Source: Thermoanaerobaculia bacterium | GTDB taxonomy: Bacteria; Acidobacteriota; Thermoanaerobaculia; UBA5066 | DNA: 64,000 nt | NCBI GenBank assembly: GCA_963719225.1 | Contig: CAVRAY010000001.1 | Coordinates: forward strand, 2,784,001 to 2,848,000 | Reading direction: 5' to 3' | Position numbers and translations under genes: made by a program | The notes under the pieces: generated by a model | Databases searched by the model: none | What the model was told of the DNA's origin: nothing | What the model saw: only the letters and a program-made list of their open reading frames with translations | In this document: positions 13,475 through 57,686 of the stretch, piece after piece | Numbering within the stretch: position 1 is the first letter of the stretch | How the letters are laid out: each line of letters opens with the position of its first letter

Positions 13475-14425
13475 TCACGGCCACACGCTCTCCTTCTCCT
13501 CGTGCCAGTCGCGGGTCATGTCGAGCCAGAACGCGAGGCCCGCATGCGGTCCGAAAGATGCGTAGACCCGGGCGACGCGTGCGTCCTTCACGGCGCGCCC
13601 CCGAAACCTCAGGGTCGCGACCTTCTTGCGTGACCAGGCGTCGAGGCCCAGCTTGCGGTGTCGGCCGAGGAGACGCCCCAGCGTGTCGGCGGCGTAAGGG
13701 CCAAAGCCCTTTTCCGCCCGAATCTCCTCCTCGACTTCCTCGTCGGGACGTTCCGGATCCTCCCAGCGCGTCAGCTCCAGCTTTCCGGAGGCGACGCGCC
13801 GCGCGAAGGAGGCGAGATACGGCGCCCGGTAGCCCCACTTCGCCGCCGCGAGAGTGCGCGCGGTCATTCCCGCGACGAACGGCGCGTCGGGAAACGCGCC
13901 GCCTCGATCGAAACGCTCGATCAGGTTCGTCACCATGACCTTCGTCAGGCCCCAGGTGCAGTTCGTCGTCGCGAGGACCTTCACGGCGTCCTCGAAGAGC
14001 GTCGGCGCGCGCAGGATCCGCCCCGCCCCGCGCCGCGCGACCCACGCGAAGCGGGGGTCGCCGGCGCAGAGGGAATGGAAGGAAGAAAGATCTGCTTTCA
14101 GATCGAGGACCCTCTCTAGAACGCGACCTACGGCGCGAGAAGAAATGTCCGAAGAGAGATTTTCTTTGAAAGGTGAAGAGGGCACGCCCGCCGCCGCGGC
14201 GCGACAAGATGCGCCGCCGCGCAATTCACCCTTCGAAGAAAGCGCCCGTGCCGTCGCGACCAGTCCGCTCGTGCGTTCCCCGACGATGACGCGCACGGGG
14301 CATTCTCCGACCAAGAAAATCAATCCCAGTGTCTTCTCTTTCTCGTCCCACGCGAACGGGGGCAGGTCGTACCAGCCGTGACTCCGCACGACGAGCCCCA
14401 GGTCCATCGGCGGGAGCCTGAGCAT
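13475..14425 (-). CDS. HhH-GPD DNA glycosylase (AlkA/Ogg-like)
   Basis: SHGWYDLPPF, GRILRAPTLFEDAVKVLATTNC, GYRAPY, KGFGPYAA; contains an in-frame palindromic insert at 14161-14241. Confidence 0.8.
   Translation of the reverse strand: MLRLPPMDLGLVVRSHGWYDLPPFAWDEKEKTLGLIFLVGECPVRVIVGERTSGLVATARALSSKGELRGGASCRAAAAGVPSSPFKENLSSDISSRAVGRVLERVLDLKADLSSFHSLCAGDPRFAWVARRGAGRILRAPTLFEDAVKVLATTNCTWGLTKVMVTNLIERFDRGGAFPDAPFVAGMTARTLAAAKWGYRAPYLASFARRVASGKLELTRWEDPERPDEEVEEEIRAEKGFGPYAADTLGRLLGRHRKLGLDAWSRKKVATLRFRGRAVKDARVARVYASFGPHAGLAFWLDMTRDWHEEKESVWP
14161..14241. repeat. Intragenic palindromic element with 17-bp inverted ends
   Basis: TTTCTTTGAAAGGTGAA...TTCACCCTTCGAAGAAA (15/17 complementary), 81 bp. 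Confidence 0.75.
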
Positions 14426-16872
14426 CACGGGCTCGAGCCGATGCCGGGGCCCGGCCCGTCGCCGCCGTGCACGTTGCAGCGCTCGGTGGGCGCGGTGCCC
14501 TCGAGGAAGACCTCGTTGAGGGATTTGGGGCACTCCTCCGTGACGAGCATGCCCGTCGTCGGATCGATCGAAGCCGTCACGATGCCCGGCGTGGTCGGGA
14601 ACGGCGCCTCGAAATACTGCGAGGGGAGACGCCGCACGAAGTCGGCGAAGATCGGAAGCGCCGCCGAAGAGCCCGAGAGGTTCAGGCCGCGGTTGTCGTC
14701 GAAGCCCACCCAGACGGCCACGAGAAGGCGCGGCGAGAAGCCGATGAACCAGGCGTCGCGTCCGTCGTTGGTCGTGCCCGTCTTGCCCGCGAGGATGCCC
14801 TGCGCCCCGAGGCGGCGGGCGGAGGCGCCCGTGCCGTGATCCACGACCCCCTGCAGGACGGAGTCGAGGATCGAGATCGCGTCCGCGTCCGCGCCGCGCA
14901 CGACGGGCTCGTCCTTCGTCTCGATGCGCCGGGCGTTCGGACCAACGATGCCGAGCAGCGCGTTCGGTCGCACGCGAAAACCGCCGTTCGCGAACGTGCA
15001 GTAGGCGGCCGCGATCTCCATGGGGCTCGTCTCGAACGCTCCGAGTGCGAGCGACGGGAACGGCCTCATGGGGGACGCGATGCCGGTGCGCCGCGCCGTG
15101 TCGACGATGTCCGGGAGAAGGGTTCGCCCCGGCGCGGTCTCGGTGACGGCGATGCGCACCGTCGGGATGTTGATGGACTGTTCCAGCGCCTGGCGCGCGG
15201 TCATCGGCCCCCGGAACTCGCCGTCGTAGTTCTTCGGCGACCAGGTCTCGTCCTCGCCCTTGCCCCACACGAGCGCGATGGGCGAGTCGACGAAAATCGA
15301 GGCGGGCGTGATGGGCTTCGGGAGGTCGCGCTTTCCGAATGCCGTCAGATAGACGAACGGCTTGAACAGCGAGCCCGGCTGGCGGCGGGCCTGCACGACG
15401 CGGTTGAACTGGCTGACCTGATAGTCGCGTCCCCCCACGAGCGCGCGCACGGATCCCGTCGCCGGGTCGAGCGCGATGACGGCGGCCTGGAGCGCGTCGT
15501 CCTCGCCTTTCGGCCGAAGCCGCTTGTAGCGCCTTTCGAGCTCTTCGAGTCCCTTGAGAACGGCCGCCTGCGCGGCCTGCTGCATGTCGGGGTCGAGCGT
15601 CGTGTAGACCGAAAGCCCGTCCTCCTTCACGAAGCCGGGTGCTTCCTTCACCTGGTTGAGGACGAAGTCGACGAAGTGCGGCGCGATGATGCCCGCGGGA
15701 GGACCCTTCGACCGCGTGAGAGGCGCGCCGAGCGCGGCTTCGTAGGCGGCCTTGTCGATCTTCTTCTGCTCGAGCATCCCCTTGAGGACGAGGGCGCGTC
15801 GCGCCCGGGCGTTCTCGGGATTCCGGTAAGGCGAGTACTTTCCCGGCGAGGAGATGAGACCCGCGAGCATCGCGGCTTCCGGGAGGTCCAGCCTCGAGAC
15901 GCTCTTCCCGAAGTAGAAGCGCGACGCCTCCTCGACGCCCGTGACCGAGATCGAGCCGCGCTGGCCGAGGTAGATCTCGTTCAGGTACGCCTCGAGGATC
16001 TGCTTCTTGTCGTATTTAGCCTCGAGAATGACCGCCATCAGGGCCTCGACGACCTTGCGCTTCAGCTTCCGCTCGGGCGTCAGGAACATGTTCTTCACGA
16101 GCTGCTGCGTGAGCGTGGAGGTTCCGCGAACCGCACCGCGCCGTGCCGCGCCCTGGAGGACGGCGCCCACGAGTCTTCGGAACGCGATGCCCCCATGCGT
16201 GAAGAAATCGCGGTCTTCGGTCGTGAGAATCGCGTCGAGGACCACCTGGGGGACCTGGTCGAGCGTGACGAGCGTCCGGTCCTGCATCTTCTCGTCGTAG
16301 ACGGACCCCACGACTTCCGGCTCGAACACGACGTAGGGCAGCGGAGTTCCGTCGTCCGCGCGCTTGAGCGCCGCGACCCGACGCCCCGAGAAGTCCATTT
16401 CGGCCGGCACACCGGGCGTCCGCCCCCAGGCCGTCTCCCGCGCGTTCGAGGTGACGGCGATGCGTCCCCGGACGTGCGCGTACTGCCCCGCGGCGACCGG
16501 CGGCTTCGGGACCTCGACGTAGCGCAGGCGCGAGAGCCGCCGGACCACGTCGTCGGCCGAAAGCGTGTCTCCCGGCCGGACGGCCCACACGTCCGAATAG
16601 AGGCGCGTCGGAAGCGACCACCGCCGACCGTCCATCGTGCGGGAGACGACACGGGAGAAATAGAGGACGACCACAAGGCCTGCGACGAGGAAGAGGGCGA
16701 GCGTGGCGCCCAGGAAGAAAAGTACGGGGTGCGGGACGCGGCGCAGGCGTTCGGTGAGCGCGCGCAGCGCCGGAGCCAGGCGCGCCCGGAGCGCGCGCGC
16801 GGCCTGAGCGGCCTTCTCCGAGGCCCGCGCCAGCTTCTCTTTCGCGGCGCTCCGCGCGCTCCGGAAATCCAC
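14425..16872 (-). CDS. mrcB: Penicillin-binding protein 1B (transglycosylase/transpeptidase)
   Basis: TM plus UB2H-like region; EDRDFFTH, STLTQQLVKN, YLNEIYLGQ; SLFK, SIN, KTGT. Confidence 0.88.
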   Translation of the reverse strand: MDFRSARSAAKEKLARASEKAAQAARALRARLAPALRALTERLRRVPHPVLFFLGATLALFLVAGLVVVLYFSRVVSRTMDGRRWSLPTRLYSDVWAVRPGDTLSADDVVRRLSRLRYVEVPKPPVAAGQYAHVRGRIAVTSNARETAWGRTPGVPAEMDFSGRRVAALKRADDGTPLPYVVFEPEVVGSVYDEKMQDRTLVTLDQVPQVVLDAILTTEDRDFFTHGGIAFRRLVGAVLQGAARRGAVRGTSTLTQQLVKNMFLTPERKLKRKVVEALMAVILEAKYDKKQILEAYLNEIYLGQRGSISVTGVEEASRFYFGKSVSRLDLPEAAMLAGLISSPGKYSPYRNPENARARRALVLKGMLEQKKIDKAAYEAALGAPLTRSKGPPAGIIAPHFVDFVLNQVKEAPGFVKEDGLSVYTTLDPDMQQAAQAAVLKGLEELERRYKRLRPKGEDDALQAAVIALDPATGSVRALVGGRDYQVSQFNRVVQARRQPGSLFKPFVYLTAFGKRDLPKPITPASIFVDSPIALVWGKGEDETWSPKNYDGEFRGPMTARQALEQSINIPTVRIAVTETAPGRTLLPDIVDTARRTGIASPMRPFPSLALGAFETSPMEIAAAYCTFANGGFRVRPNALLGIVGPNARRIETKDEPVVRGADADAISILDSVLQGVVDHGTGASARRLGAQGILAGKTGTTNDGRDAWFIGFSPRLLVAVWVGFDDNRGLNLSGSSAALPIFADFVRRLPSQYFEAPFPTTPGIVTASIDPTTGMLVTEECPKSLNEVFLEGTAPTERCNVHGGDGPGPGIGSSP

Positions 16873-16915
16873 GTCCGGAGTCTAGCGAAGGGCCCGGCCG
16901 ATGCTAGGATTCAGC

Positions 16916-17467
16916 GTGCGGCTGATGACGTCCCCTCTCCGCAGGGTCCTCGAAGAGCTCGACGATTGGCGCGAGCGCATTCCCCTTCCCGAGCTGAAGC
17001 GCGCCCTGGCGGACTTGACGGTCACTCTCGAGGACGTTCGTCCGTTCGTGAAGTTCGACGGCGACGGTTACCGCCGCAACCTCATGCACTCGGGGCCGGT
17101 CTATCAGGCGCTCGTCCTCTGCTGGCGGAACGGCCAGCGGAGTCCGATCCACGACCACCGCGGATCGAGCTGCGGCGTGCGCGTCCTCCACGGCACGGCG
17201 CTCGAGACCGTCTTCGAGCGCGCCCGCAACCGGATGATCTATGCCGTCCGCTCCCACGAGATGAAGCCGGGATCGATCTGCGCGACCCAGGACGACGACA
17301 TCCACCAGGTCTCGAACCTGGCGGCCGACGGCGGCGACCTCGTCACGCTCCACGTCTATTCCCCGCCCCTCCTCCAGATGGGCACGTACTCGCTCTTCGA
17401 CACGGAGGTCAAGCCTTTCTCCGAGCCCGTGTACGAGGAAGCGCTCGTGGACGGCGGGGGGATCTAG
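16916..17467 (+). CDS. Cysteine dioxygenase type I family
   Basis: YRRN...LCWRNGQRSPIHDH...IHQVSN...TLHVYSPP 3-His cupin motifs. Confidence 0.88.
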   Translation: MRLMTSPLRRVLEELDDWRERIPLPELKRALADLTVTLEDVRPFVKFDGDGYRRNLMHSGPVYQALVLCWRNGQRSPIHDHRGSSCGVRVLHGTALETVFERARNRMIYAVRSHEMKPGSICATQDDDIHQVSNLAADGGDLVTLHVYSPPLLQMGTYSLFDTEVKPFSEPVYEEALVDGGGI

Positions 17468-17481
17468 TACCCCGCACGGGC

Positions 17482-18423
17482 TCAGGAGATCCAGCCGGCT
17501 TTCAGCGCCGCGAGCGTCGCCGAGGCCGCGAGGACCCAGAGAGCCACGCCGAGGGCGACGGGCTTCAGACCCACGCGCCTCAAGGCATCCCGCGTCAGAG
17601 ACGTCCCGATCAGGAAGAGCGTCACGACGAGGACCCGCTTTGCGCCCGCGGCGACGGCGACGCCGGCAGGGCGCAGCGCGGGCACTCCCGTGGCGAGAGC
17701 CGCGACGGCCACGAAGCCGACGAGAAACCAGGGCGGCGCCGTGACGGATTTCCCGCGCTCGCCCGTTCGGCGCGCCCGCGCCCATCCGATGACGAGCGCG
17801 ACCGGCACGATCCACAGCGCGCGTGCGAGCTTCACGGTCGTGGCCACCTCCACGGCCTTCGGCCCGTAGGCCGCGGCCGCGCCGACGACCGAGCTCGTAT
17901 CGTGGATCGCCAGCGCCGCGAACAGGCCGAATCTCGCCTCGTCGAGCCCGGCGAACCGCCCGAGCGGCGGGAACACGACGAGCGCGACGGCGTTGAGGAG
18001 GAAGACCGTCGCGAGCGCGACCGAGATGGACTCGGCTTTCGCCTTGATCGCCGGCGCCACGGCCGCGATCGCGCTGCCTCCGCAGATCGCGGTCCCCGTC
18101 GTCACGAGGAGCGCCGTGTCCTCCTCGACGCCGAAAAGGCGCGCGAGGAGGAGCCCGGCGCAGAACGTCAGCCCGATCCCGACGGCCGTGTATCCGATTC
18201 CCCGCGCTCCCACCCGCCCCACGACGCCGAGATCGGCGGCCCCTCCGAGCCCCATGACCGACAGACCGAGCAGCAGATGCGCGAGCCTTCGCGTCCCCGA
18301 AAGCCACGGGTTCCCGGCGCCGAGCGCGACGAGGATCCCCGACACGAGCGCGGCCGCTGGCGGGACGAACGGCAGGGCCGCGAGAACCGCGAGCAGCGGC
18401 ACGAGGATGTGTCCGGGCGTCAA
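17482..18423 (-). CDS. YeiH / putative sulfate exporter (PSE) family membrane protein
   Basis: GTAICGGSAIAAVAP, IHDTSSVVGAA, ATTVKLARALW. Confidence 0.9.
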   Translation of the reverse strand: MTPGHILVPLLAVLAALPFVPPAAALVSGILVALGAGNPWLSGTRRLAHLLLGLSVMGLGGAADLGVVGRVGARGIGYTAVGIGLTFCAGLLLARLFGVEEDTALLVTTGTAICGGSAIAAVAPAIKAKAESISVALATVFLLNAVALVVFPPLGRFAGLDEARFGLFAALAIHDTSSVVGAAAAYGPKAVEVATTVKLARALWIVPVALVIGWARARRTGERGKSVTAPPWFLVGFVAVAALATGVPALRPAGVAVAAGAKRVLVVTLFLIGTSLTRDALRRVGLKPVALGVALWVLAASATLAALKAGWIS

Positions 18424-18430
18424 GGGCCCG

Positions 18431-18440
18431 AGTGTAGGCT
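18431..18440. promoter_or_regulatory. Bidirectional overlapping -10 elements (TACACT minus, TAGGCT plus)
   Basis: AGTGTAGGCT; each -10 lies 6-7 nt from a divergent start codon. Confidence 0.55.
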
Positions 18441-18446
18441 AGCGGC

Positions 18447-19313: not shown

Positions 19314-19330
19314 CTCGGAAGGAAAACGAA

Positions 19331-21331: not shown

Positions 21332-21357
21332 TGCTCATACCTCTTTTCGAAGAAAAT
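21265..21357. repeat. Degenerate palindromic element over the S9 peptidase start
   Basis: TTCTGCTTAGAAAGAG...CTCTTTTCGAAGAAAAT; internal direct repeat TGCTCATAC x2. Confidence 0.55.
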
Positions 21358-21372
21358 CCCGGTTCTTCTCTT

Positions 21373-24029: not shown

Positions 24030-24114
24030 CGAATCCTCCTGCGAGGGATGGATTCTACGGGCACGGGAGGCCATTTCGAAGGCCGGGACACGATTCCTCG
24101 ATGAGAATGCGGCC

Positions 24115-25112: not shown

Positions 25113-25204
25113 TTTTCTTAGAAGGTGAAAGAATCACGGGCGCCGCCGAAGCCAAGGAGGAGGCCCGATGCGCAACCCCGGGTCCCATTCACTTTCTAAG
25201 AAAA
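25113..25204. repeat. Palindromic element with 17-bp inverted ends enclosing an RBS and start codon
   Basis: TTTTCTTAGAAGGTGAA...TTCACTTTCTAAGAAAA (16/17 complementary). Confidence 0.8.
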
Positions 25205-25929
25205 GAACATCGAAAAGTCCTGCTAAGAGTCGCCCGGCTATAAGTCGGGCTCCCCGGCCTGCTCCGAAAGCAAAGAAACCTTCGTCTTCTCCCGCCCCGA
25301 CTCTCACCGTCTCCTTCGTCTCCATCGAGGTGATGCACAACGGCTGGCCCGGTGAAGGCGTTCGCGCGACGGATCTTTCGCTCGTCCTTCAGCTCGAGGA
25401 TCCCGATCCCGCCGTAGCCGGCGAAAAAGCCGCGCTCGCCTCCGCGCACCTTCCGTTCTCGGCATCCTCGGGGCAGACGGTCACCGCGGCGCAGCTGCCG
25501 CCCGATCAGAATGGAAACCCGCTCTTCGGCGGAGCCGTGAAGCTTTCGAGCCACGTGAACCTCCACGCGCGCCTCTTCGTGGAGCGCACGAACGCGGTCG
25601 GCCCGATCCTGGGAGCAGCCCTGAATACCGTGATCGGGCAGTTCCTGGGCCGCATTCCGCTCCTCGCGACGCCGGCGCGGGAAGTCCTCCACGTCCAGAT
25701 CGGAAAAGTGATCGCGACCGAGCTCGCGCGCGCGACGGCGATCGTGCCCGTGGACGCGACGTTCCGCGGGTCCCATCCCGTCACGCTCGCACTCGTGGCT
25801 CCGGTGACGATTCCCGGCATTTACGCTCCGCCGGGGAGCCCCGAGGGCTACAAGAAGGGCGTCATCTCGACGGAGGGAGACCTTACGGCCCTCCTCCACC
25901 TCACGCTCGACCTGGAGCTCGCGGGCTGA
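25168..25929 (+). CDS. Hypothetical protein
   Basis: AAGGAGGAGG RBS; basic disordered N-terminus followed by a globular-looking region. Confidence 0.65.
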   Translation: MRNPGSHSLSKKRTSKSPAKSRPAISRAPRPAPKAKKPSSSPAPTLTVSFVSIEVMHNGWPGEGVRATDLSLVLQLEDPDPAVAGEKAALASAHLPFSASSGQTVTAAQLPPDQNGNPLFGGAVKLSSHVNLHARLFVERTNAVGPILGAALNTVIGQFLGRIPLLATPAREVLHVQIGKVIATELARATAIVPVDATFRGSHPVTLALVAPVTIPGIYAPPGSPEGYKKGVISTEGDLTALLHLTLDLELAG

Positions 25930-28164: not shown

Positions 28165-29019
28165 GTGTCGGCGCTGCTTCTTTCCGCCCCGCTGCCCCTT
28201 CCTGACTTGCCTCGAGAGATCGCCGCCCGGCTGACGACCGCCTCCGGACTTTCGCGCGAACGGTTCGTACCGGGGTTCCTGCCCACACGCATCGAGGGGC
28301 TGGACCGATTGTTGGGAGGCGGGCTGCCCCGCGGCGCGCTCGTGGAGATTTCGGGGCGCGCAACCTCGGGCCGTTTTTCGGTGGCGCTCTCTGCCCTCGC
28401 CGCAACCACGCAGACGGGCGAAGTCGCCGCGCTCGTTGATCCCGGCGACCACTTCGATCCGCAGGGGGCGGCTGCCGCCGGCGCCGAGCTTTCACGGATG
28501 CTTTGGCTGCGCCCGCGTGGGCTAAAGCCGGCGCTCGCCGCGGCCGAGACCATCCTCGCGACGGGCTTCGCGCTCGTCGTCCTCGACCTCGGGCTCTCAC
28601 GCATCTCCAGGCGGCGTTTCGACGACGCCGTCTGGCTGCGCCTCGCGCGGCGCGCCCGCTTCCACGACGCGGCGCTCCTCGTCCTGGCGCCTTACCGCGT
28701 CACGGGCACCGCGGCGCACGTCGTGCTCGCGGCCGATGCGGCTCACGCGGGCTGGGACCGCGCGAGCCTGGACCGGCGGGCGCAGAGCGTGTCGCTCCTC
28801 GACGGCCTGTCCTCGCGCCTCGTGCTCGAGAAAACGCGGGACTCGAAGATGAATATGAATATGAAAGACAAGACGAGCTTGCTGAATCTCTCCCTGCTGG
28901 ATGCGGTTCAGGCAGGTAAGGAAGAGAGAAAAGAAAGAAAGATTTGCTTAGAAAGGGAAGAAAGAGAAAGAGAGAACGCCGTTTCGTTTTCCAGGCATTC
29001 ATCCGCATTCGAGCGTTGA
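28165..29019 (+). CDS. imuA: ImuA-like RecA-fold protein
   Basis: LDRLLGGGLPRGALVEISG, degenerate Walker A, ALVDPGDHFDP, LVVLD; directly upstream of imuB. Confidence 0.82.
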   Translation: MSALLLSAPLPLPDLPREIAARLTTASGLSRERFVPGFLPTRIEGLDRLLGGGLPRGALVEISGRATSGRFSVALSALAATTQTGEVAALVDPGDHFDPQGAAAAGAELSRMLWLRPRGLKPALAAAETILATGFALVVLDLGLSRISRRRFDDAVWLRLARRARFHDAALLVLAPYRVTGTAAHVVLAADAAHAGWDRASLDRRAQSVSLLDGLSSRLVLEKTRDSKMNMNMKDKTSLLNLSLLDAVQAGKEERKERKICLEREERERENAVSFSRHSSAFER

Positions 29020-29057
29020 GGGGTCTGGGAGCCAGGGATATTCACCTTCTAAGAAAA
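28943..29057. repeat. Palindromic element spanning the imuA stop
   Basis: TTTGCTTAGAAAGGGAA...TTCACCTTCTAAGAAAA; right end is an exact consensus copy. Confidence 0.75.
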
Positions 29058-29088
29058 ACTGCATGACATCAACCGAGGCACAGCAGGC

Positions 29089-30672
29089 ATGGAACGACCG
29101 GCAGATGCGCATGCGGAGCAGCAAAAAAATTCGTCCCCGGCCACTCCGGCCGCTCCCCGCCTCGCGTGTCTCGTGGTGCCGCTGTTCCCCCTCGCCGCCC
29201 GGCTGCGCAGCGAGCCCGCGCTGCGGGACGAGGCGGTCATCCTGTGCGAAGGGAACGGGACGGCCGCGCACGTGGTCGCGGCCACGCGCAAGGCGCGCAA
29301 GGTCGGCATCCGCCCGGGCTTCACGCTGCCGCAGGCGCGGGCGCTTCTGCCCGACCTCCTCACGCGCGCGCGCGACGCGGAGAGCGAGCGCGCCGCGCAG
29401 GAGGCTCTCCTCGACGTGGCCGGCACGGTGTCGCCGCGCGTGGAGGACGCGGGCGACGGTGTCGTGTACCTCGACGCGGACGGCCTCGAGCGCCTCTTTC
29501 CCGACGAGCACGACCTCGGCCGCGCCCTGATCGCCGCCGCGAAGCGCGAGTCTTTGCCCGCGCGCTGCGGGCTCGCGTCGAGCAAGCTCGCCGCGCGCGT
29601 GGCCGCGACGTTGCCGGACTCTCCCGTCGCCGTGCCCGCAGGCGGCGAAGCCGCGTTCCTCGCGCCGCTGCCTCTCGCGAAGCTGGATCCCGACGCCGAG
29701 ATCGTCGAGACGCTCGCGCGCTGGGGTCTCTCCTCGGTGGGCGACCTCGCGAAGCTGCCCGCGGCCGACGTCGCGAGCCGGCTCGGCGCGCGCGGACACG
29801 CGCTGCACGAAATCGCGCGCGGGCGCGACCCGCGCCCCCTCGTGCCGCGCCGGCCGCCGCCGGGCTTCACGGAAGGCATGGAGCTGGAGTGGCCGCTCCT
29901 CACGCTCGAGCCGTTCCTCGCGCTGGCCGAGAGCGCGCTCGAACGCCTCGCGCGGCGCCTCGAGGCGGAGGCCGTGGGCTGCGCGCGGCTGGACATCTCC
30001 CTGACGCTCGAGCCCGAAGGCTGCGACACGCGCAGCCTGGATCTGCCCGCGCCCACGCGCGACGTGAAGACGCTGCTCACCCTCGTGCGTCTCGGGCTCG
30101 AGGGCCGGCCGCCGGGCGCCGCCGTGACGGGCTTTTCCCTCACGGCGCAACCCGACGCCCCGCGCAAGAGCCAGCTCACGCTCTTCGGGCCGGCCGAGAT
30201 CTCGCCCGATCGCCTCGCGACGGCGCTCGCGAGGCTCTTCGCGCTCCTCGGGCCCGGGCGCGTGGGCGCGCCGAGCCCCGTGGACGGCTACCGACCCGAG
30301 CGCTTCGCGCTCGTGCCATTCGCGCCGCCGCCGCCTCCCGTGGTACGCAAAATGCCGAAGACGGGCCGTGGCCTTCTCTCGGTGCGCGTGCTGCGGCCGC
30401 CGGTGCCGCTCGAGGTGCTTCTCGAAGGCGAGCGGCCCACTTCGCTGCGCGCGCTCGAGCCCCGTTCCACGGAGGGCGGCGGGGGACGGCCGGTGGACGT
30501 GGCCGGCACCGTGCGCGTGGCCTCCGGGCCCTGGCGCCTCGAGGAAGGGTGGTGGCAGGAGGCGCCTGCCTTCCGCGCGTACTGGGACGTGGAGCTTTCG
30601 GGCGGCGGCCTCTACCGCATCTTCCACGACGAAGCGGGCGGCGAGTGGTTCGCAGACGGCGTGTACGACTAG
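29089..30672 (+). CDS. imuB: ImuB, Y-family polymerase-like protein
   Basis: GIRPGFTLPQARAL, SPRVE..G.GVVYLD, QLTLF clamp motif, C-terminal GPWRLEEGWW...WFADGVYD. Confidence 0.88.
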   Translation: MERPADAHAEQQKNSSPATPAAPRLACLVVPLFPLAARLRSEPALRDEAVILCEGNGTAAHVVAATRKARKVGIRPGFTLPQARALLPDLLTRARDAESERAAQEALLDVAGTVSPRVEDAGDGVVYLDADGLERLFPDEHDLGRALIAAAKRESLPARCGLASSKLAARVAATLPDSPVAVPAGGEAAFLAPLPLAKLDPDAEIVETLARWGLSSVGDLAKLPAADVASRLGARGHALHEIARGRDPRPLVPRRPPPGFTEGMELEWPLLTLEPFLALAESALERLARRLEAEAVGCARLDISLTLEPEGCDTRSLDLPAPTRDVKTLLTLVRLGLEGRPPGAAVTGFSLTAQPDAPRKSQLTLFGPAEISPDRLATALARLFALLGPGRVGAPSPVDGYRPERFALVPFAPPPPPVVRKMPKTGRGLLSVRVLRPPVPLEVLLEGERPTSLRALEPRSTEGGGGRPVDVAGTVRVASGPWRLEEGWWQEAPAFRAYWDVELSGGGLYRIFHDEAGGEWFADGVYD

Positions 30673-30725
30673 ATCTTCGCCGTGCTCCCCTGCAGGCGTT
30701 ATCGTCCGATCGCAACGAGGTCGAA

Positions 30726-30980
30726 ATGAAAAAGGCCAAACGCGCTCCTGTTTCCGCCGAATTCGTCTGCACGCGCGTCGGAAAGGCGTACGTCAGCTTT
30801 CACCTGATGCCGATCTACATGTCTCCCGAACTCGCGAAACAGATCTCTCCGGCGCTGAAAAGGCGCATGCAGGGCAAGGCCTGCTTCAACTTCAAGGCAC
30901 CGGATCCGGCGCTCTTCAAGGATCTCTCCGGCCTCACGAAGTCGGCCTACGAGACGTGGAAGAAGGAAGGACTCGTCTGA
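30726..30980 (+). CDS. Small protein, probably N-terminally truncated (DUF1801-like)
   Basis: GAGG RBS; YVSFHLMPIY...LKRRMQGKACFNF motif. Confidence 0.55.
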   Translation: MKKAKRAPVSAEFVCTRVGKAYVSFHLMPIYMSPELAKQISPALKRRMQGKACFNFKAPDPALFKDLSGLTKSAYETWKKEGLV

Positions 30981-31609
30981 AAAGAAAGCTCTACGACGAG
31001 GCGTACTTCCGGAAGTGGTATCGCGATCCGAAGAAGCGCATCGTGCGTCGTGCGGGCGTCGCGCGCAAGGTCGCGATGGCCGTCTTCGTCGCGGAGCATC
31101 TCCTCGGCCGTCCGATCGATTCGGTGCTCGACGTGGGCTGCGGCGAGGGCGGCTGGTTTCCGCTGCTGCGCGCGCTGCGCCCGAGGCTGCGCTACCTGGG
31201 CCTCGATACGAGCGACTACGCCGTGCGTCGGTTCTGCCGCTCGCGCAACGTGCATCGGGGCTCCTGGGGCGAGCTCTCGGAGCTGCGCTTCGACCAGCCG
31301 TTCGATCTCGTCGTGTGCTCGGACACGCTCCACTACGTGCGGACGTCCGAGCTCGTGCGGGGCCTCGAGGTCCTGCCGGAGCTCGTGGCGGGCGTCGCGT
31401 ATCTCGACTTCCTCTCGGCCGACGACGATCTCGAAACGGGCATCGAGGGCGATCTCGTCGGCTTCAAGATGCGCCGCACCTCCTGGTATCGGCGAAAGTT
31501 CCGCGAGGCGGGTCTCGTCGAGTGCGGCCTCGGCTTCTGGGCTGCGTCGGAGCTCGCTCCCCGGCTCACCTTGCTCGAGCGCGCACCCGGACAGAAACAG
31601 GCGCCTTGA
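30977..31609 (+). CDS. Class I SAM-dependent methyltransferase (probable CTG start)
   Basis: VLDVGCGEG, FDLVVCSDTLHY; CTG overlaps the upstream TGA, AAGGAAGGA RBS. Confidence 0.8.
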   Translation: MKRKLYDEAYFRKWYRDPKKRIVRRAGVARKVAMAVFVAEHLLGRPIDSVLDVGCGEGGWFPLLRALRPRLRYLGLDTSDYAVRRFCRSRNVHRGSWGELSELRFDQPFDLVVCSDTLHYVRTSELVRGLEVLPELVAGVAYLDFLSADDDLETGIEGDLVGFKMRRTSWYRRKFREAGLVECGLGFWAASELAPRLTLLERAPGQKQAP

Positions 31610-31635
31610 CTTACGCTTTACTTACGCCATAGGCT
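31606..31635 (+). promoter_or_regulatory. dnaE2 promoter TTGACT-N18-TAGGCT with ACTTACG-N4-ACTTACG box
   Basis: Same box as the imuA promoter; ATG 6 nt after the -10. Confidence 0.7.
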
Positions 31636-31641
31636 CGCCCC

Positions 31642-34600
31642 ATGGCGGAAGGGCCCCCCAGCCGTGACTTCATCGGCCCATACATCGGATGCGGCCTGCA
31701 TTCCTCGGCGGGCGCGCGCAAGGAGAAAGCGCGCGTGCGCGCGTTCGAGCGGCCGCCCGTTCCTCCGAAGCGCGCGAGACCGTATGCCGAGCTGCGCGTC
31801 GCCTCGGCGTTCTCGTTTCTGAACGGCTCGTCGCTGCCGGAGGATCTCGTCGTGCGAGCGGCGGCGCTCGACCTCCCCGCGATGGCACTCGTGGACACGA
31901 ACGGCCTCTCCGGCGCCCCGCGCTTCTGGAAGGCGGCGAAAGCGGCGGGAGTGAAAGCGCTGGTTGGAGCGGAGGTCGTCATCGCGCCGCACCCGGCTCT
32001 CATCGGGAGTCGTTCGAAGAGGATTTCGGGATTTTCTTCGAAGGGTAAGAAGGGAGAAGAAGCCGAAGCGCGGGGCGCGCGCAGCTCAGCCCCGCGCCGC
32101 GGAAGCGGCGAATCGCCCTCTTCCCCATTCGAAGAAATCCCCGGTCATCCTCACAACAGCCACCTCCCTGGCCCATTGGGCCTCGTCCCCCCTCCCCTCC
32201 CAGCAGGAGTTTCTTATCCCCGCCTGACGCTGCTCGCCGAGAGCCAGAGAGGCTACCGGAACCTCTGCTCGCTTCTCACCGCGGCCGCCGCGGGGAAGCC
32301 GAAGGGGCAGGCGGCGGCGACGTGGGAGGAAGTCGCCGCCCACGCGGAAGGGCTGCACGTCCTGACGGGGGGCGAGGAGAGCGTCGTGACGCGCGCGTTG
32401 ACATCGCGCGACGCGGGAGGTTTCGACGCGGCGCGGCGCGAGCTCGACCGCCTCGCGGCGCTCTTCCCGGGACGCGTGCACATGGAGCTGCAGCGCCACT
32501 TCCTGCGCGAGGAGGAGCACCTGAACCGCGCGCTCCTCGATCTCGGGGGCGCCGCGCGCCTGCCCGTCCTCGCGACGAACGGCGCGCGCTACGCACAGCG
32601 GAAAGACAAGGACCTCTTCGACGCGCTCACGTGCATCCGCCACCACACGCATCTCGACGCGGCCGGCACGAAGCTGCACGCGGGGCGCGAGCGCCACCTG
32701 AAGTCCGCGGCCGACATGGAAACTCTCTTCGCGGATCTGCCGGGCGTCCTCGAAAGAAGCGCCGAGCTCGCGGGACGCCTTTCCTTCACGCTCGCGGATC
32801 TCGGCTACCGCTTCCCCGCGTACCCGCTGCCGCCGGGGGAGACGCCGTCGTCGTTCCTCAGGCACGTCACGTGGGAAGGCGCGCGCTCGCGCTTCCGGCC
32901 GCTCACGGGAAAAGCGCAGGCCCAGCTCCAGCGGGAGCTCGACCTCATCGAAAAGCTGGACCTCGCGGGCTATTTCCTCATCGTCTGGGACATCGTCAAC
33001 TTCTGCAAGAAGGAGCACATCCTCGTGCAGGGGCGCGGCTCGGCCGCGAACAGCGCCGTGTGCTACGCGCTCTCGATCACGGCGGTGGATCCCGTGAAGA
33101 TGGAGCTTCTCTTCGAGCGCTTTCTCTCGGAGGAGCGTGGGGAGTGGCCCGACATCGACCTCGACCTACCCTCGGGCGACCCGCGCGAGAAGGTGATCCA
33201 GCACGTCTACAAGACGTACGGAGCCGACGGCGCCGCGATGACGGCGAACGTCATCACGTACCGCGACCGTTCGGCCGCGCGCGAGATGGCGAAGGCCCTC
33301 GGGTTCTCGCCGGAGCAAGTGGACACGATCGCGAAGCACCTCGGGACGTGGAGCTTCGGCGAGTACCGCGACGGCGCGGCCGACCTCGGCAAGGAGATGG
33401 CGGCCGCCGGGTTCGACCCCGCGCATCCGCGGGTCGCGCACTTCGGGAAGCTCTTCATGCGCGTCCAGAGCCTCCCCCGCCACCTCGGGCAGCACTCGGG
33501 CGGAATGGTCGTGGCGATGGGCCGGCTGTCCGAGGTCGTCCCGCTCGAGCCCGCCGCGATGGAAGGGCGCGTCGTCATCCAGTGGGACAAGGACGACTGC
33601 GCGGACCTCGGCATCGTGAAGGTGGACCTCCTCGGCCTCGGGATGCTGGGCGCGATCGAGAAGATGCTGCCCCTGATCAAGGCGCACGAGGGCGTGGAGG
33701 TGGACCTCGCGCATCTGCCCGCGGGCGACCCGAAGGTGTACGAGCTACTCCGCGCGGCCGACACGATCGGCCTCTTCCAGGTCGAGAGCCGCGCGCAGAT
33801 GGCCTCGCTGCCCCGCCACGCGCCGAAGGTCTTCTACGACATCGTCGTGCAGGTCGCGATCATCCGGCCGGGGCCGATCGTGGGCGGGATGGTGCACCCG
33901 TTCTTCGACCGGCGGCAGGGCAAGGCGCCGGTCGAGTACCCGCACCCGTGTCTCGAGCCGATCCTGAAGCGCACGCTCGGCGTGCCGCTTTTCCAGGAGC
34001 AGCTCCTCCGGATCGCGATGGTCGCCGCAGGCTTCACGGGGGGCGAGGCGGAAGAGCTGCGCCGCGCGATGGGTTTCAAGCGCTCCGAGGAGCGTATGGG
34101 CGCGATCGAGGAGCGGCTGCGCGCGGGCATGGCGAAAAAAGGGATCACGGGGCCCGCGCAGGACCAGATCGTCAAGTCCATCACGTCGTTCGCGCTCTAC
34201 GGCTTTCCCGAGTCGCACGCGGCCAGCTTCGCGCTCATCGCGTACGCGAGCGCGTGGCTGAAGGCGCATCACCCGGCGGCGTTCACGGCGTGCCTCCTGA
34301 ATGCGTGGCCGATGGGCTTCTACCATCCCGCCACGATCGTGAAGGACATCCAGCGCAAGGGCACGCCGGTGCTGGCCATCGACGTGAATTTTTCTGGATG
34401 GGATTGCAGGATAGAAAGAGAAGAGAAGAGGGCGGCCACGCGCCCGCCCCTCGCCGTGCGTCTGGGCATGCGCTTCATCAAGGGGCTGAAGCAGACGACC
34501 GGGGAAGCCATCGAAAAGGAACGAGAGAAGAGATTCTTCGAAGATGTCGCGGACTTTTCTCGCCGGTGCCGCCTGCGTCCCGACGAGATGACCTTGCTCG

Positions 34601-35153
34601 CCTACTCCGGTTCTCTTTCGTCCCTCGGCGTCTCCCGCCGCGCGGCGCTGTGGCAGGTGGCGGAGGTCTCACGCCCTCTCGGCGCTCTCTACGCAACTCT
34701 TCCTCTTTCTCTTTCCTCGCGGAACTCTCCTCTCCCCGAGATGTCCCTGATCGAAGAGACGACCGCCGACTACCGGGCGACGGACCTCACGGCGGGGCCG
34801 CATCTCCTCGAGCACCTCAGGCCATTTCTGTCCGCGCAATCGATCCTCTCGGCCGCCGAGCTGTCCGGCGCCAGAGAGGGGAACGCGTGAAAACCGCGGG
34901 CGCCGTCATCGTTCGCCAGCGCCCCGGCACCGCGAAGGGCTTCGTCTTCCTGTCGCTCGAGGACGAAAGCGGCATCGTGCAGGCCATCGTGCGCCCCGAT
35001 CTCTTCCGGGAGAACCGTTCGGTGATCGTGGGCTCCGGAGGCCTCGTCGTGGAGGGAAAGCTCCAGAAGGAAGGCGGAAACCTCTCGGTGAGGGCCGAGC
35101 GTTTCTGGCCGCTTCCCTCGTTGCCGGACCTTCCCAGCCACGACTTTCGCTGA
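31642..35153 (+). CDS. dnaE2: Error-prone DNA polymerase DnaE2; frameshifted near 34880 in this sequence
   Basis: PHP domain, GRGSAANS, PDIDLD, PRHLGQHSGG, YGFPESHAASF; the OB fold RQRPGTAKG and terminal SHDFR lie in another frame after a G4 run. Confidence 0.92.
32032..32137. repeat. Intragenic palindromic element in the DnaE2 PHP domain
   Basis: TTTTCTTCGAAGGGTAA...TTCCCCATTCGAAGAAA with inner GCGCGGGGC/GCCCCGCGC stem. Confidence 0.72.
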
Positions 35154-43665: not shown

Positions 43666-43668
43666 GAC

Positions 43669-45373: not shown

Positions 45374-45377
45374 CGTC

Positions 45378-46361: not shown

Positions 46362-46392
46362 CGTTCCTCCGTAGGGACGTGAAGCCGGAATG

Positions 46393-47403: not shown

Positions 47404-47404
47404 G

Positions 47405-47590: not shown

Positions 47591-47645
47591 GGCGGTCTCC
47601 TGTGACGGTCCGACGCGCGAAGGCGAGGACGAAAAGAGTCTGGTT

Positions 47646-48230: not shown

Positions 48231-48283
48231 GGGAAAAGGCTCCTCCGTAACGGAGAGCAGCCGCGGAATATAACATGGAAAGC

Positions 48284-49369
48284 ATGCGCCTCGCCGTCGA
48301 TGCGCGCCCGCTCGAGGAGCGTCCGACTGGCGTCGGCCGCTATCTCGAGGGGCTGCTTTCCGCCTGGCTCGACCAGACGCCAGCGGATTCTTTCGTCCTG
48401 CTCTCGCCGCGGAGGGTCCACGTGCCGTCGCGCCTTTCCGGCCGGGTGGAGGTGACGAAGACACCCGCGCTCCCGGGGACGGTCTGGCTGCAGACCACCG
48501 CCGCGCGCGCCGCTCACCGGGCCCGCGCCGACGCCTTTTTCGGAAGTCTCGGCATCCTGCCTCTTCTCTCTTCGCTGCCGGGGGTCGCAACCGTTCATGA
48601 CCTCACGCCTCTTCTTTTTCCCGCGTGGCACTCGCGTAAGAATCGCCTTGGCTTCAACCCCTTCATCGGCGCGACCGTCCGGCACGCTCGCCGCATCGTG
48701 ACGGTTTCCGAGGCGACGCGGCGGGACCTCGTCGCCGCGTTTCCCGATGCCGAGCCGAAGACCGTTGTCGTGTACAACGGCATCGCACCCGAGACTCCCG
48801 CCGCCTTCGCCGCGGTCCCTCACGGCGGAAAGCCGTACGTCCTTTATGTGGGCACGCTCGAGCCGCGCAAGAACGTCTCGCGGCTCGTGGCGGCGATGGA
48901 GTCGATCTGGGATCGCCGACCGGATTTTCCCGAACTCGTCCTGGCGGGAGAAGACGGCTGGGGCATGAAAGAATTTGCCCAGACCGTTTCGGGCTCACGG
49001 CACGCGGCGCGCATCGCGCGCGTCGGCTATCTCGATTCGGGCGAAAGGGCGCGTTGGCTCGGAGGGGCGCGCGTCTTCGCGTATCCGAGTCTTTACGAAG
49101 GCTTCGGCCTCCCGCCCCTCGAAGCGATGGCGCAGGGGACACCGGTCGTGGGCTCCTCGTCTTCGTCGCTTCCGGAGGTGATGGGCGACGCCGGTCTCCT
49201 GCCGGATCCGACGAATATTCAAGACATCGCCTCGGCATTGGAAAGGGCGCAGGACGACCAGAAATTCCGTCGCCGCGCGGCTGCGGAGGGCCCGCGGCGC
49301 GCTCAGAGCTTCACGTGGGCGGCCGCGGCGGCCAAGACGCGCGCCCTGTTCGTGGAGGCGCTCTCTTGA
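48284..49369 (+). CDS. Glycosyltransferase family 4
   Basis: TGVGRY, TVHDL, GTLEPRKN, YEGFGLPPLEAMA. Confidence 0.92.
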   Translation: MRLAVDARPLEERPTGVGRYLEGLLSAWLDQTPADSFVLLSPRRVHVPSRLSGRVEVTKTPALPGTVWLQTTAARAAHRARADAFFGSLGILPLLSSLPGVATVHDLTPLLFPAWHSRKNRLGFNPFIGATVRHARRIVTVSEATRRDLVAAFPDAEPKTVVVYNGIAPETPAAFAAVPHGGKPYVLYVGTLEPRKNVSRLVAAMESIWDRRPDFPELVLAGEDGWGMKEFAQTVSGSRHAARIARVGYLDSGERARWLGGARVFAYPSLYEGFGLPPLEAMAQGTPVVGSSSSSLPEVMGDAGLLPDPTNIQDIASALERAQDDQKFRRRAAAEGPRRAQSFTWAAAAAKTRALFVEALS

Positions 49370-50418
49370 CGGAGCGAAAGAAGCTCATCCTCGTCGATGC
49401 TCGGAAGGCACGCGACTTCGGGATTGGAACGTACCTGCGGGGCCTCCTCTGCGGCCTCGCAAGCCTGGACCGCTTCGAACTCCGGGCGCTCGTTCTACCC
49501 GGCGACGGGGCGCTCCTTCCCGCGGGCGTCGGAACGACGCCCTGCGCGGCCGCGCATTATTCCTTCGGCGAGCTCGTGGCCGTCCGGCGGGCGATCTCGG
49601 CGGTGAAACCGGATCTCTTCCATGCCCCGCATTACGTCGTGCCCCTCTTCCCGCCACACGCCACGGTCGTCACGATCCACGACCTCATGCACCTCACCCG
49701 GCCCGAGCACGCGACGCCCGCGAAGCGCGCGTACGCGCGCTGGATGATCAGCCGCGCGCTGCGCCTTTCCGCCCGAGTCATCGCGGTGTCGGAGGCAACG
49801 AAGAAAGAAATTCTTGCTTTCGGACCCTCTCAAGGCCTCAAGGTCGAAGTGATTCCAAACGGCGTGGGAGAGAGATTTTTCTTAGAAGGTGAAGAGAAAG
49901 AATCTTCCTCTTATCTTCTCTTCCTCGGCAACGACAAGCCGCACAAGAATCTCGATGGTTTGCTCGCCGCCTGGCCGCGCGTGCGGGGTTCCTTTCCCAC
50001 GCTCACTCTTGTCCTCGCGGGCGTCGAGCCCGGGCGGTCGCTGCCCGAAGGCGCGAAGGCCATCGGCTTCGTGCCGGATGCGGACGTGCCTTCTCTTGTC
50101 GGCGGCGCCCGCGCGCTCGTCCTGCCCTCCTTCGCGGAAGGCTTCGGACTCCCGGTTCTCGAGGCGCAGGCGGCGGGCACGCCCGTCGCGTGCTCGGACC
50201 TCCCCGCTCTCCGCGAGGCCGCGGGCGACGCGGCGGTGTACTTCGATCCGCACGACGTCGATTCGATGATTAAGGGGATACAGAGAATTTTGAAAGAGGA
50301 AGAGCTTAGAAAGGGTTTGAGAAAGAGGGGACGGGCGCGGGCGAAGGAATACTCGTGGCGGCGCGCGGCGGAGCAAACCGCAGCTGTGTATGAAGATGTT
50401 CTTAGAAGGGTGACGTGA
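49366..50418 (+). CDS. Glycosyltransferase family 4
   Basis: GIGTY, TIHDL, KPHKN, EGFGLPVLEA; TTG start overlaps upstream stop. Confidence 0.9.
   Translation: MTERKKLILVDARKARDFGIGTYLRGLLCGLASLDRFELRALVLPGDGALLPAGVGTTPCAAAHYSFGELVAVRRAISAVKPDLFHAPHYVVPLFPPHATVVTIHDLMHLTRPEHATPAKRAYARWMISRALRLSARVIAVSEATKKEILAFGPSQGLKVEVIPNGVGERFFLEGEEKESSSYLLFLGNDKPHKNLDGLLAAWPRVRGSFPTLTLVLAGVEPGRSLPEGAKAIGFVPDADVPSLVGGARALVLPSFAEGFGLPVLEAQAAGTPVACSDLPALREAAGDAAVYFDPHDVDSMIKGIQRILKEEELRKGLRKRGRARAKEYSWRRAAEQTAAVYEDVLRRVT
49877..49918. repeat. Exact 17-bp motif copy with short degenerate inverted partner inside GT4
   Basis: TTTTCTTAGAAGGTGAA at 49877, then CTCTTATCTTCT. Confidence 0.7.
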
Positions 50419-52948: not shown

Positions 52949-52991
52949 GCCTGCCGGTCGAACCGGCGTTTCTCGATCAGTGAAGGGGGAA

Positions 52992-53019
52992 CGGGGGAAA
53001 CACGACCGTGTTTCCCCCG
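52992..53019. terminator. Perfect hairpin between convergent genes
   Basis: CGGGGGAAACACG-AC-CGTGTTTCCCCCG; no clear U-tract. Confidence 0.5.
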
Positions 53020-53074
53020 AACATGACAGCTTCTAGCGCGCCCGTTTCTTGGTGCGTGCGAAGCACGCGGCGCG

Positions 53075-56041: not shown

Positions 56042-56090
56042 GACCCGGATTCTCCGGGTCAGGGGGGACAGCCGCTATGGTGCAAACCCA

Positions 56091-57686
56091 TCAGGCTGCG
56101 CGCGCCGCCCGCAGGACCCGGGGCACGATGATCAACGCAGCGCCATACACGACGAACGTCGCCACCAGCGTGCTCGGGCGCCCGTGCGGGAGATCGTCGA
56201 TGAGCAGCTTGAGACCGGCAATCGCGAGCACCGGGTAGGTGAGGCGAGCGAGGGGGGCGAGCGTCGGGAGGCGCCTGAGCGAGGCGAGCAGCACGGACGC
56301 CGCGGCCAGGACGGCGCCACGTACCGCGGCGACCCGGCCGGCGTCGCCGTCGGGCGCGACGACGGCCGCCAGACCCAGCACGGCGAGCGCGCCGGCGCCC
56401 GCGATCGAGACGCATGCGAGACCGAACATCGCTCCGCGCGCAGGTCCACCGGTGCCCGAGCGGACGCGGGCCGCAAGGAGCGCCGCCGACGCGGCCGAGA
56501 GGGCGAGGACGACGAGAGAGTCTCTGTGTGGCGAGGCGCCAGCGTAGGGAGAGCCGAGGAAGGCGCGCCCGGCGAAACCGGCCAGGCCGGATGCGGCCGA
56601 TGCCACGAGGAGCAGGACCGCTCCATAGGCGGGAGCCATCGAGCCCGCGATCCGTGCCGGCGCGACGGCCGCCGCGAATCCGGCAACGCCCCAGACGAGC
56701 GAGGCGGGAACGTCCGCCAGGGGGGTCAGCCGCGAGACGGCGAAGACGGCGAGAAGAAGAGCCGCCCCGAGCTGGAGCGCCTCGAAGACGTCGGAATCCC
56801 CGGCGCGCCGCCGGATTCGCCGGACCGTCCCCACGAGGGAAACGGCGAAGAGCGAAAGCGCGAGCGCGAGAACGGCGTTCCGGGAGAGGCCCGCGTACGC
56901 CTCGGGCAGTCCCCCGGAACGTCCGGCGATCCAGACGGCTTCGAGCACGACGAGATCCGCGACGGCGGCCGGAACCCATGGAAGGCCGGCCCAACTTCTG
57001 CGGATCGAGGCCGCCCGCGCCCCCGCCACGAGGGCGACGAGAAGAGCGCCGAAGGTTACGAGAGCATGCGTCGTCACGAGGAGCAACGACGCGGTCGGGA
57101 CGACCGAAAGGACGGCGCCCCAGGCGAGAGCCGGTAGGTTGCGGTGGACGGACGCGCCGAGCGCGGCAGCGCCGACCGTGAAGAGCACGGCGGCCGCGGC
57201 CCTCGGACCGAACACGCCGAAACGGGTCGAGGCCTCCCAGACGAGGGGGCATGCAATGGCGAGCGCCGTGATACCCCACGCGGCTGCGGCCGCGTCGGAG
57301 CCCTTCCTCCCGGCCCGGTCCGCGAGGACGAGCCAGGTCAAGGCGTAGGCAAGGCCCAGCGTCACGCCCGCGCCGCGCGGAAACGCGCCCGAGTCGGTCA
57401 AGGCGCGAATGAGGAATGCCCCGGCGAGGACGAAAAGGCAGCGGCCCAAGAGGGCGACGATCGAGGGGGATGAGAGACCGGGAGATTTCTCAGAAAGCGC
57501 GCCAGGGAGCGTTGCGTCTCGCGCCGCCGTTTCCGCGTCTGCTGCGGCGGTGCGGCCGGCCTTATTACCTTCTAAGAAAGGGTGCTCTTCGGCTTTCTCG
57601 AGTGCCGCGACGCGCATCTCCACCGACCGGAGAGACCGGGCCAGGTCGGCGACCTGCTTCTCGAGATCGGAAACGAGGTCGTCCAT
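56091..57686 (-). CDS. Polytopic membrane protein (DUF2339-like)
   Basis: N-terminal coiled coil then many TMs; C-terminal GLKLLIDD...TFVVYGAALI. Confidence 0.7.
   Translation of the reverse strand: MDDLVSDLEKQVADLARSLRSVEMRVAALEKAEEHPFLEGNKAGRTAAADAETAARDATLPGALSEKSPGLSSPSIVALLGRCLFVLAGAFLIRALTDSGAFPRGAGVTLGLAYALTWLVLADRAGRKGSDAAAAAWGITALAIACPLVWEASTRFGVFGPRAAAAVLFTVGAAALGASVHRNLPALAWGAVLSVVPTASLLLVTTHALVTFGALLVALVAGARAASIRRSWAGLPWVPAAVADLVVLEAVWIAGRSGGLPEAYAGLSRNAVLALALSLFAVSLVGTVRRIRRRAGDSDVFEALQLGAALLLAVFAVSRLTPLADVPASLVWGVAGFAAAVAPARIAGSMAPAYGAVLLLVASAASGLAGFAGRAFLGSPYAGASPHRDSLVVLALSAASAALLAARVRSGTGGPARGAMFGLACVSIAGAGALAVLGLAAVVAPDGDAGRVAAVRGAVLAAASVLLASLRRLPTLAPLARLTYPVLAIAGLKLLIDDLPHGRPSTLVATFVVYGAALIIVPRVLRAARAA
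57486..57579. repeat. Intragenic palindromic element
   Basis: TTTCTCAGAAAG...TTACCTTCTAAGAAA. Confidence 0.65.

Follow-up and report, generated by a model that had tools for sequence, protein, structure and literature searches.

Few bacterial motifs, among them uptake sequences, Chi, KOPS and HIP1, are known to overwrite protein sequence genome-wide, and none of these is known to need a facing partner. Here we examine a dispersed 17-bp motif in a 64,000-nucleotide window (the whole stretch of DNA analysed, positions 2,784,001 to 2,848,000 of contig CAVRAY010000001.1, assembly GCA_963719225.1) from a Thermoanaerobaculia bacterium, whose genome (G000) comprises 4.75 Mb with 68% GC in two contigs (C1 and C2). 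The original prediction, made from the window alone, took the motif either for a family akin to MITEs (miniature inverted-repeat transposable elements) and Rickettsia palindromic elements, or for paired sites of a chromosome-organising or looping protein. We find that the element is very probably a conserved paired DNA site and neither a MITE nor a hairpin, and that it belongs to none of the known families tested. Tentatively, and at what we judge to be slightly less than an even chance, the pairs may be binding sites for a putative host protein that would bridge roughly 65–250 bp and organise the terminus half of the chromosome.

Among described systems, matS is a palindrome restricted to the terminus, where some two dozen copies occur singly. 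Like the matS/MatP system, the present motif is a short duplex motif enriched either side of dif, but it is asymmetric, paired, present in about 800 copies and only 2–3-fold enriched. Noc sites avoid the terminus. The TTTC and GAAA half-sites of the motif resemble the ParB-family palindrome of ParB/Noc sites (parS, NBS), and a second parAB lies beside dif; however, the motif has a 3-bp rather than a 4-bp centre, asymmetric flanks and a paired use. As with Rickettsia palindromic elements and MITEs, it is translated as extra loops in some proteins (24/84 sites), although its interiors are not conserved, its lengths are not a multiple of 3 and native codons are mostly overwritten. The DNA uptake sequences and uptake signal sequences (DUS and USS) of Neisseriaceae and Pasteurellaceae are likewise hundreds of short, lineage-specific genic sites on both strands, at tolerant residues, rare in acquired DNA and arising without transposition, but they are described as more evenly spread than random (PMC2817400), whereas our motif is clumped, terminus-biased and arranged in obligate convergent pairs 65–250 bp apart. 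REPINs are inverted doublets with variable spacers whose singlets resemble decayed doublets, and they are described as extragenic, with fixed spacings (71 and 110 bp), compensatory changes and a RAYT (PMC3116915); in contrast, 60% of the motif pairs are genic, with broad spacing, no covariation and no RAYT found. Convergent heptamer repeats of Xanthomonas and Nostoc share the dispersed convergent pairs and the order of purine-rich then pyrimidine-rich arm, but are described as tandem 7-mers with no origin/terminus bias and as about 90% intergenic in Xanthomonas (PMC4692102), while ours is a single complex motif that is mostly coding and terminus-biased, with no heptamer pair in G000. A full-text search of the literature, mostly without subscription journals, returned no paper on the motif or the lineage.

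Window and genome sites were called with an iterated weight matrix trained on the genome (scores in bits), and genes were called in this analysis (4135 in G000). The whole-genome scan that had been suggested with the original prediction gave 813 matches of at least 17 bits, compared with ~22 in a same-length 5th-order Markov simulation. The core reads W-T-T-T/G-C-T-T-M-G-A-A-R-G, with C4, G8 and A9 nearly invariant, and the purine-rich flanks first remarked on in the window are borne out genome-wide (76–84% purine adjoining the core), reaching on the strand of the motif to roughly -20 and +25. Neighbouring sites (≥17 bits, within 200 bp) were convergent in 234 cases, tandem in 59 and divergent in only 3. 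With a 250-bp limit there were 297 pairs and 269 unpaired sites, the latter having a weak partner inward in 36% versus outward in 5%, and a convergent-k-mer scan without any motif prior also recovered the motif in G000.

Centre spacing in 262 de-duplicated pairs (≥60 bp) was <60 bp in 8, 60–69 bp in 11, 70–99 bp in 91 and ≥100 bp in 152, so that 243/262 have centres at least 70 bp apart and the lower limit lies near 65 bp; 135 pairs from a relative, G019 (1.2-Mb sample, 76% identity to G000), gave a distribution of the same shape. Pairs lay wholly within one open reading frame (ORF) in 179/297 cases and had both arms intergenic in 68, with one pair surrounding a tRNA-Gln gene. The interiors of the 297 pairs formed 270 clusters and in many cases consist of native coding DNA, and a search for a conserved interior sub-motif returned GC-rich words only. 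The largest interior cluster consisted of 15 kinase paralogs with a native subdomain between the arms. At C1:2,293,000-2,320,000, tandem long Ser/Thr kinase paralogs each carry a 106-bp pair overwriting the same subdomain, and this arrangement is also present in G019. Exact runs common to arms are longer than those given by position-specific Markov models (64 arms of at least 24 bp versus 4–24).

The motif is restricted to a narrow lineage. An 11-mer pattern gave 134–513 matches in 24/24 genus genomes versus 3–12 in 16 genomes of other families, a contrast that also holds without two unpublished members of the latter, G025 and G030, and in a class-wide draw there were 144–366 pattern matches in 10 genus genomes versus 0–30 in 140 others. 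A strict 12-mer occurred 27–245 times in all 26 genomes of the genus (g1) and 1–25 times in all eight of a sister genus (g11), with a single match in total over 26 genomes of eight other genera; the site density of one sister-genus genome, G086, comes from pattern counts alone. At 12 g11 loci picked for having a match, the sites are paired in the same way, and several occupy the genes and positions that they occupy in G000. Scanning 15 of 64 parts of GTDB for the pair yielded 121 loci, and 79 of the 80 titles listed were Thermoanaerobaculia or Acidobacteriota. Viral contigs gave 5 pattern matches, all in DNA of 33–41% GC, which we took as chance. A convergent-k-mer scan of 0.8 Mb of the outgroup genome G028 found repeats of heptamer type only and not the motif; the dispersed repeats of that sample comprise heptamer arms, at least 3 REP-like palindromes and an intergenic 12-mer.

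Within the window, the three exact copies of the 17-mer originally listed, at 25113(+), 29041(-) and 49877(+), were re-found, and allowing up to 3 mismatches gave 7 matches where 0.01 are expected. The claim of inverted pairs held equally well, with the matrix locating five strong convergent pairs of 83–115 bp from outer end to outer end, and beyond these a pair in which one arm has decayed, two strong sites that lack a partner and a single weak site:

14160..14242, convergent pair (weight matrix), arms at 14160 (+), 30.7 bits, and 14226 (-), 19.0 bits
21266..21356, convergent intergenic pair (weight matrix), between a greA-fusion gene and an S9 peptidase gene
25113..25204, convergent pair (weight matrix), downstream of a rhodanese gene, exact motif at 25113
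28943..29057, convergent pair with the exact motif at 29041(-), running across the 3' end of imuA and the imuA-imuB spacer
32032..32138, convergent pair, within a hypervariable loop of the PHP domain of dnaE2 (31642-34890, +)
34532..34548, + strand, weak single site of 13.6 bits in dnaE2, missing from the list of the original prediction
49877..49893, + strand, unpaired exact site, reading FFLEGE in a GT4 glycosyltransferase (49366-50418)
50397..50413, + strand, unpaired site, reading VLRRV at the 3' end of the same GT4 glycosyltransferase gene (49366-50418)
57485..57580, pair with a decayed left arm, inside an ORF at 56091-57719 (-)

For the last of these, given originally as 57486/57565, the right arm (57564, -) scores 20.9 bits, while its left partner at 57485 reaches just 7.3 bits. 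The peptide readings FFLEGE, PFLEGN, FSSKG and VLRRV are present in ORFs as described, whereas SLSKK is read only if the ORF at 25168-25929 begins at the ATG at 25168, where the right arm of the 25113..25204 pair may overlap its start. The GC-hairpin interiors had been half right: interiors are richer in GC (0.72 vs 0.66–0.68), but relative to shuffles they show about as much excess folding as control DNA does (-0.023 vs -0.016 kcal/mol/nt in genes and -0.011 vs -0.017 elsewhere).

We compared sites within proteins with the outgroup using 0.8 Mb of G028 (21% of its genome), in which 44 of 272 site-bearing genes had reciprocal best matches; these hold 89 sites, or 84 once 5 terminal ones were dropped. 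Native residues are aligned with 60 of the 84 internal sites, and the other 24 fall in insertions; overwriting is therefore the chief mode, with insertion as a genuine second one. The overwritten residues show 24% identity to G028 versus 52% at random positions, 77 of the 274 TTA codons of G000 fall inside sites, and density falls from 19.1 to 5.7 sites per 100 kb as codon bias (calculated with sites masked) rises. The reading as a MITE or Rickettsia-type palindromic element is not supported, given unrelated interiors, in-gene pair lengths that are a multiple of 3 in 50/179, native residues that are mostly overwritten and the lack of any Y1/RAYT transposase found in G000.

Whole-pair insertions nonetheless happen in some loops, namely in dnaE2 and in the gene at 13475-14425 (-), which has a weak TIGR00588 match and is called here an Ogg/AlkA-like glycosylase. 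In the latter, pair 14160..14242 sits in a genus-specific inserted loop, and we aligned 30 of the 34 genomes with a match. In most genus members one left arm replaces the sequence of a native strand and leaves its length unchanged, whereas the right arm and another left arm lie in the genus-specific loop; arms have been gained and lost, and 7 outgroup loci have no arms. Likewise, across 30 loci of the dnaE2 PHP loop, genus members variously display pairs, additional left arms in tandem, loss of the right arm, loops with no element at all and, once, a long palindrome of unrelated sequence, and inspection of the empty sites by eye, without a systematic test, revealed no evident target-site duplication. 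This loop is a hot spot common to different lineages, which also carry in it, in frame, BoxC-like palindromes (L185), heptamer arms (L187, L189) and other palindromes (L192, L169). In G007 and G017 (L169, L015) a second long palindromic element, whose ends resemble the outer end of the motif, occupies these same loops; a search of G000 for its hairpin tag found none.

Site positions are conserved between species. Of 318 strong sites in the G019 sample 244 were alignable, and 191 of these had a site at the same place in G000, 35 had another within 150 bp and 18 had none; conditioned on G000 only, 201/259 sites were retained in G019. At fourfold-degenerate A/T third positions falling on high-information motif positions, identity was 84% (n=124) against a background of 15% (n=19,258), and from this silent-position identity we infer purifying selection on the DNA, although repeated rewriting at the same place would give the same pattern. 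These conserved silent sites, together with the use of all frames and both strands, support the original view that the constraint is on DNA and not on peptide. Genes that the syntenic G019 block lacks had half the site density (13.9 vs 30.2 per 100 kb), and 8 of 10 runs of such genes hold no more than one site, one exception being a kinase cluster that is present elsewhere in G019.

We also assessed how sites are distributed along the chromosome. The dnaA gene lies at 326 kb of C2, adjoined by canonical parS and parAB, GC skew peaks at 2.10 Mb of C1, and a dif-like site at C1 2.0376 Mb, just downstream of a second parAB, is flanked on each side by a motif pair; parS and the dif-like site were named from the parS consensus and the XerD arm of dif. 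Density within 1.25 Mb of dif was 24.1 sites per 100 kb, compared with 9.2 beyond (Mann-Whitney p 2e-8, 94 bins), and was about equal on the two arms of the terminus half (23.2 and 24.8 per 100 kb). C2 beyond about 450 kb repeats genes of C2 0–250 kb and C1 0–100 kb at ≥70% identity and is likely a chimeric join or contamination. Leaving out C2 beyond ~0.45 Mb and the first 0.2 Mb of C1, the densities were 25.5 and 11.6 (82 bins). The gradient toward the terminus holds both within genes (21.8 to 5.9) and between them (90.9 to 11.3). Counts in G019 also drop the farther the orthologous region lies from the terminus (60 regions, rho -0.49); these initially looked one-sided around dnaA, and mapping revealed a junction fusing terminus-side DNA to the origin region. 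Site units are clumped (variance/mean 1.66, coefficient of variation of gaps 1.28), and of the 26 genus loci that have a dif-like site 22 show a motif within 400 bp of it, little above the intergenic background.

Arms of a pair are complementary at 74–79% over about 30 nt, as would be seen if they formed hairpins in RNA or single-stranded DNA (a terminator, an RNase III stem or REPIN/MITE ends), yet the partner arms do not covary: in 262 pairs the core matches between true partners (11.44) equalled those between shuffled ones (11.43; core z 0.12), and |z| was <0.7 in all four zones. There was no wobble bias either, with G-U-type and A-C-type mismatches balanced at 650 and 608 in 162 in-gene pairs, and sense and antisense sites are equally common, with every frame used. 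Given the lack of both covariation and G-U wobble bias, the sites act as duplex DNA. Intergenic pairs fall between convergent genes in 5/68 cases compared with 134/1196 spacers, with no enrichment. Shine-Dalgarno-like pause sites complementary to the 16S tail might be suspected since the 16S rRNA 3' end and the start of the internal transcribed spacer score 17 bits on the matrix, but the distance of sites to start codons shows no preference, and the invariant bases of the motif fall outside the pairable part of the tail. That ribosomal match, at C1:905,528-905,553, is to the reverse strand of the motif and is probably a coincidence. Hairpin and pause-site explanations are therefore largely refuted already, and we regard them as highly improbable. 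An intrastrand triplex was dropped by reasoning, the purine-pyrimidine-purine order being unsuitable. In a search of sequencing runs, no RNA run was listed for the motif words and no run contained more than 18% of them. Equally improbable is that the sites serve a global invertase or excisase, by which the enclosed segment would be flipped or cut out, as in intragenic invertons: the inverted orientation, the sizes of 65–250 bp and the quasi-palindromic core would suit it, but 53/53 alignable interiors have the same orientation in G019 (a two-species comparison), native orientation is kept in all 15 kinase paralogs and partner arms share no common crossover sequence. Among 15 contig joints examined in relatives, out of a set with 86 more, none was a strand change, and we do not count this as evidence.

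Of the two original readings, the second agrees best with the data, namely paired sites for a putative chromosome-organising or looping protein, and the terminus enrichment adds to its support. What we propose is a family of about 800 oriented sites of 17–22 bp that face each other in pairs across mostly native DNA, with a putative host protein docking on the double-stranded sites and bridging or wrapping each pair. A dimer would read the quasi-palindromic core TTTC-N3-GAAR and the purine-rich flanks would give direction; two facing complexes would need at least ~65 bp, enclosing a GC-rich segment as a mini-loop, and the lower spacing limit may reflect either the room taken by a pair of footprints or the smallest loop that can form. 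Substitutions or short insertions at tolerant positions would create new sites, which would persist if a partner is in range. The dif-centred excess points to terminus organisation. With still less assurance, we suggest that the motif might be a bacterial chromatin code, in which an oriented motif works only as convergent pairs that tile the terminus half, for a new DNA-bridging protein dating from the ancestor of two Thermoanaerobaculia genera; its pairs can be likened to CTCF anchors, here on a 100-bp scale, and the motif would then be valuable enough to rewrite hundreds of proteins.

Several results sit uneasily with paired binding sites that organise the terminus. Pair spacing lacks the 10.5-bp phasing expected of short, rigid loops, and so suggests a flexible bridge or spreading instead. 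Copy number ranges more than 200-fold (1–245) and 25/26 other family members are without the motif, a poor fit to an essential organiser. In the G028 comparison 29% of in-gene sites lie in insertions versus 5% of controls, and in outgroups the same dnaE2 PHP loop is used by unrelated repeat families. Terminus enrichment amounts to only 2.2–2.6-fold, step and log-linear models fit it almost equally, and the G019 gradient is not independent because the sites are common to G019 and G000. Searches by named family found no binding protein for the motif, and the ParB linked to dif occurs in 55/61 family genomes, motif-free genera included, as well as in two other families, with a helix-turn-helix nearly identical in two outgroups.

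Two further explanations compete with this reading, and we consider each unlikely. The motif could be a third kind of DNA uptake sequence, in which a competence receptor prefers two facing sites and uptake with homologous recombination drives accumulation. It shares with DUS/USS, as described, the coding location, poorly conserved residues, long-term conservation and rarity in acquired DNA (PMC2817400), and comEC is present in G000; but comEC is also present in motif-free outgroups (5/5 genomes, 2 of them outgroups), and the same text has DUS/USS more even than random where our units are clumped and terminus-biased, and does not describe obligate facing pairs 65–250 bp apart in genes (PMC2817400). 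Uptake would leave both the pairing and the terminus bias unexplained. The other is a selfish repeat with convergent arms, the writer of which would be a small nuclease-like protein of four-helix-bundle, DUF559, GIY-YIG or RAYT type, with the arms renewed by gene conversion instead of being maintained by selection. This would account for the insertions, the hot spots common to several lineages and the patchy copy number, and in its favour are also the heptamer, BoxC-like and other palindromic repeats in the dnaE2 loop of outgroups, the canonical outgroup four-helix-bundle genes flanked by convergent arms, the extra tandem arms and arm losses and the long exact runs common to arms. However, no small nuclease gene bracketed by the motif was found in searches for Y1, GxxExxY, DUF559, GIY-YIG, reverse transcriptase (RT) and four-helix-bundle proteins, positions are stable across species and genera, most sites overwrite rather than insert, and the long common runs are explicable as register variants of one consensus. 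Whichever explanation wins, the system would be new, as a terminus-organising system outside model phyla, a third uptake-sequence system or a rewriting repeat. Because the profile is sharp, with the motif in two genera but not in eight sister genera and a copy number of 1–245, the cognate protein should be directly findable, and the copy-number series offers a natural system for how DNA-level codes invade proteomes.

Searches for a partner protein covered nucleases, transposases and chromosome-organising families. Y1/RAYT (PF01797) was not found in G000 and was positive in 3/24 genus and 11/16 outgroup genomes; GxxExxY was found in 0/41 genomes, DUF559 in 0/3 genus genomes and histone in 0/5 genomes, while HU and ParB copy numbers were as in outgroups and MatP was not searched for. 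In each of 3 genus genomes the GIY-YIG search gave a single long gene of UvrC size, with one further, small copy in the suspect stretch of C2, and an RT gene was present in G000 only, among 5 genomes. None of the GxxExxY, DUF559, GIY-YIG, histone, RT, HU and ParB searches gave a genus-specific candidate. No small gene in G000 is bracketed by a motif pair, except for one weak dapB-like case, and inspection by eye of a list of 87 small basic proteins gave no candidate. Long pairs of 330–390 bp numbered 0–4 in each of 29 genus genomes, and the ends listed look like ordinary native DNA.

A divergent four-helix-bundle gene (TIGR02436) is present in 20/24 genus genomes, single-copy and order-wide, with no motif flanks; in G000 it lies at C1:776,365-776,770 (L210) beside an mdh-like gene, conserved across the order, and looks domesticated. 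We rejected it as the partner, as it is single-copy beside mdh, occurs also in outgroups and has no flanking motif. Canonical four-helix-bundle genes of outgroups are flanked by convergent purine-rich/pyrimidine-rich heptamer arms, and a helix-bundle partner is not mentioned in the accessible part of PMC4679880. The dif-linked ParB is encoded by the second parA-parB at C1:2,037,400-2,039,524 (L363) and matches TIGR00180, with TIGR04285 below cut-off. Only its place and the TTTC/GAAA half-sites make it a candidate, and as motif-free outgroups also carry the protein it is a weak one; that it binds the motif seems doubtful. The second parAB beside the dif-like site may in its own right represent a terminus-linked ParABS-like system.

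Other features were noted in passing. The imuA-imuB-dnaE2 mutagenesis cassette spans 28165-35153 (+) of the window and bears two motif pairs, with the OB-fold of dnaE2 encoded in a separate small ORF (34887-35153). A tRNA-Sec gene at 2564-2658 (-) is the sole Rfam match in the window. Elsewhere in G000, two arrays of attC-like repeats lie between short genes at C1:2,197,000-2,208,400 and C1:1,103,000-1,113,500, with 18 copies of an 11-mer, and are likely integron cassette arrays.

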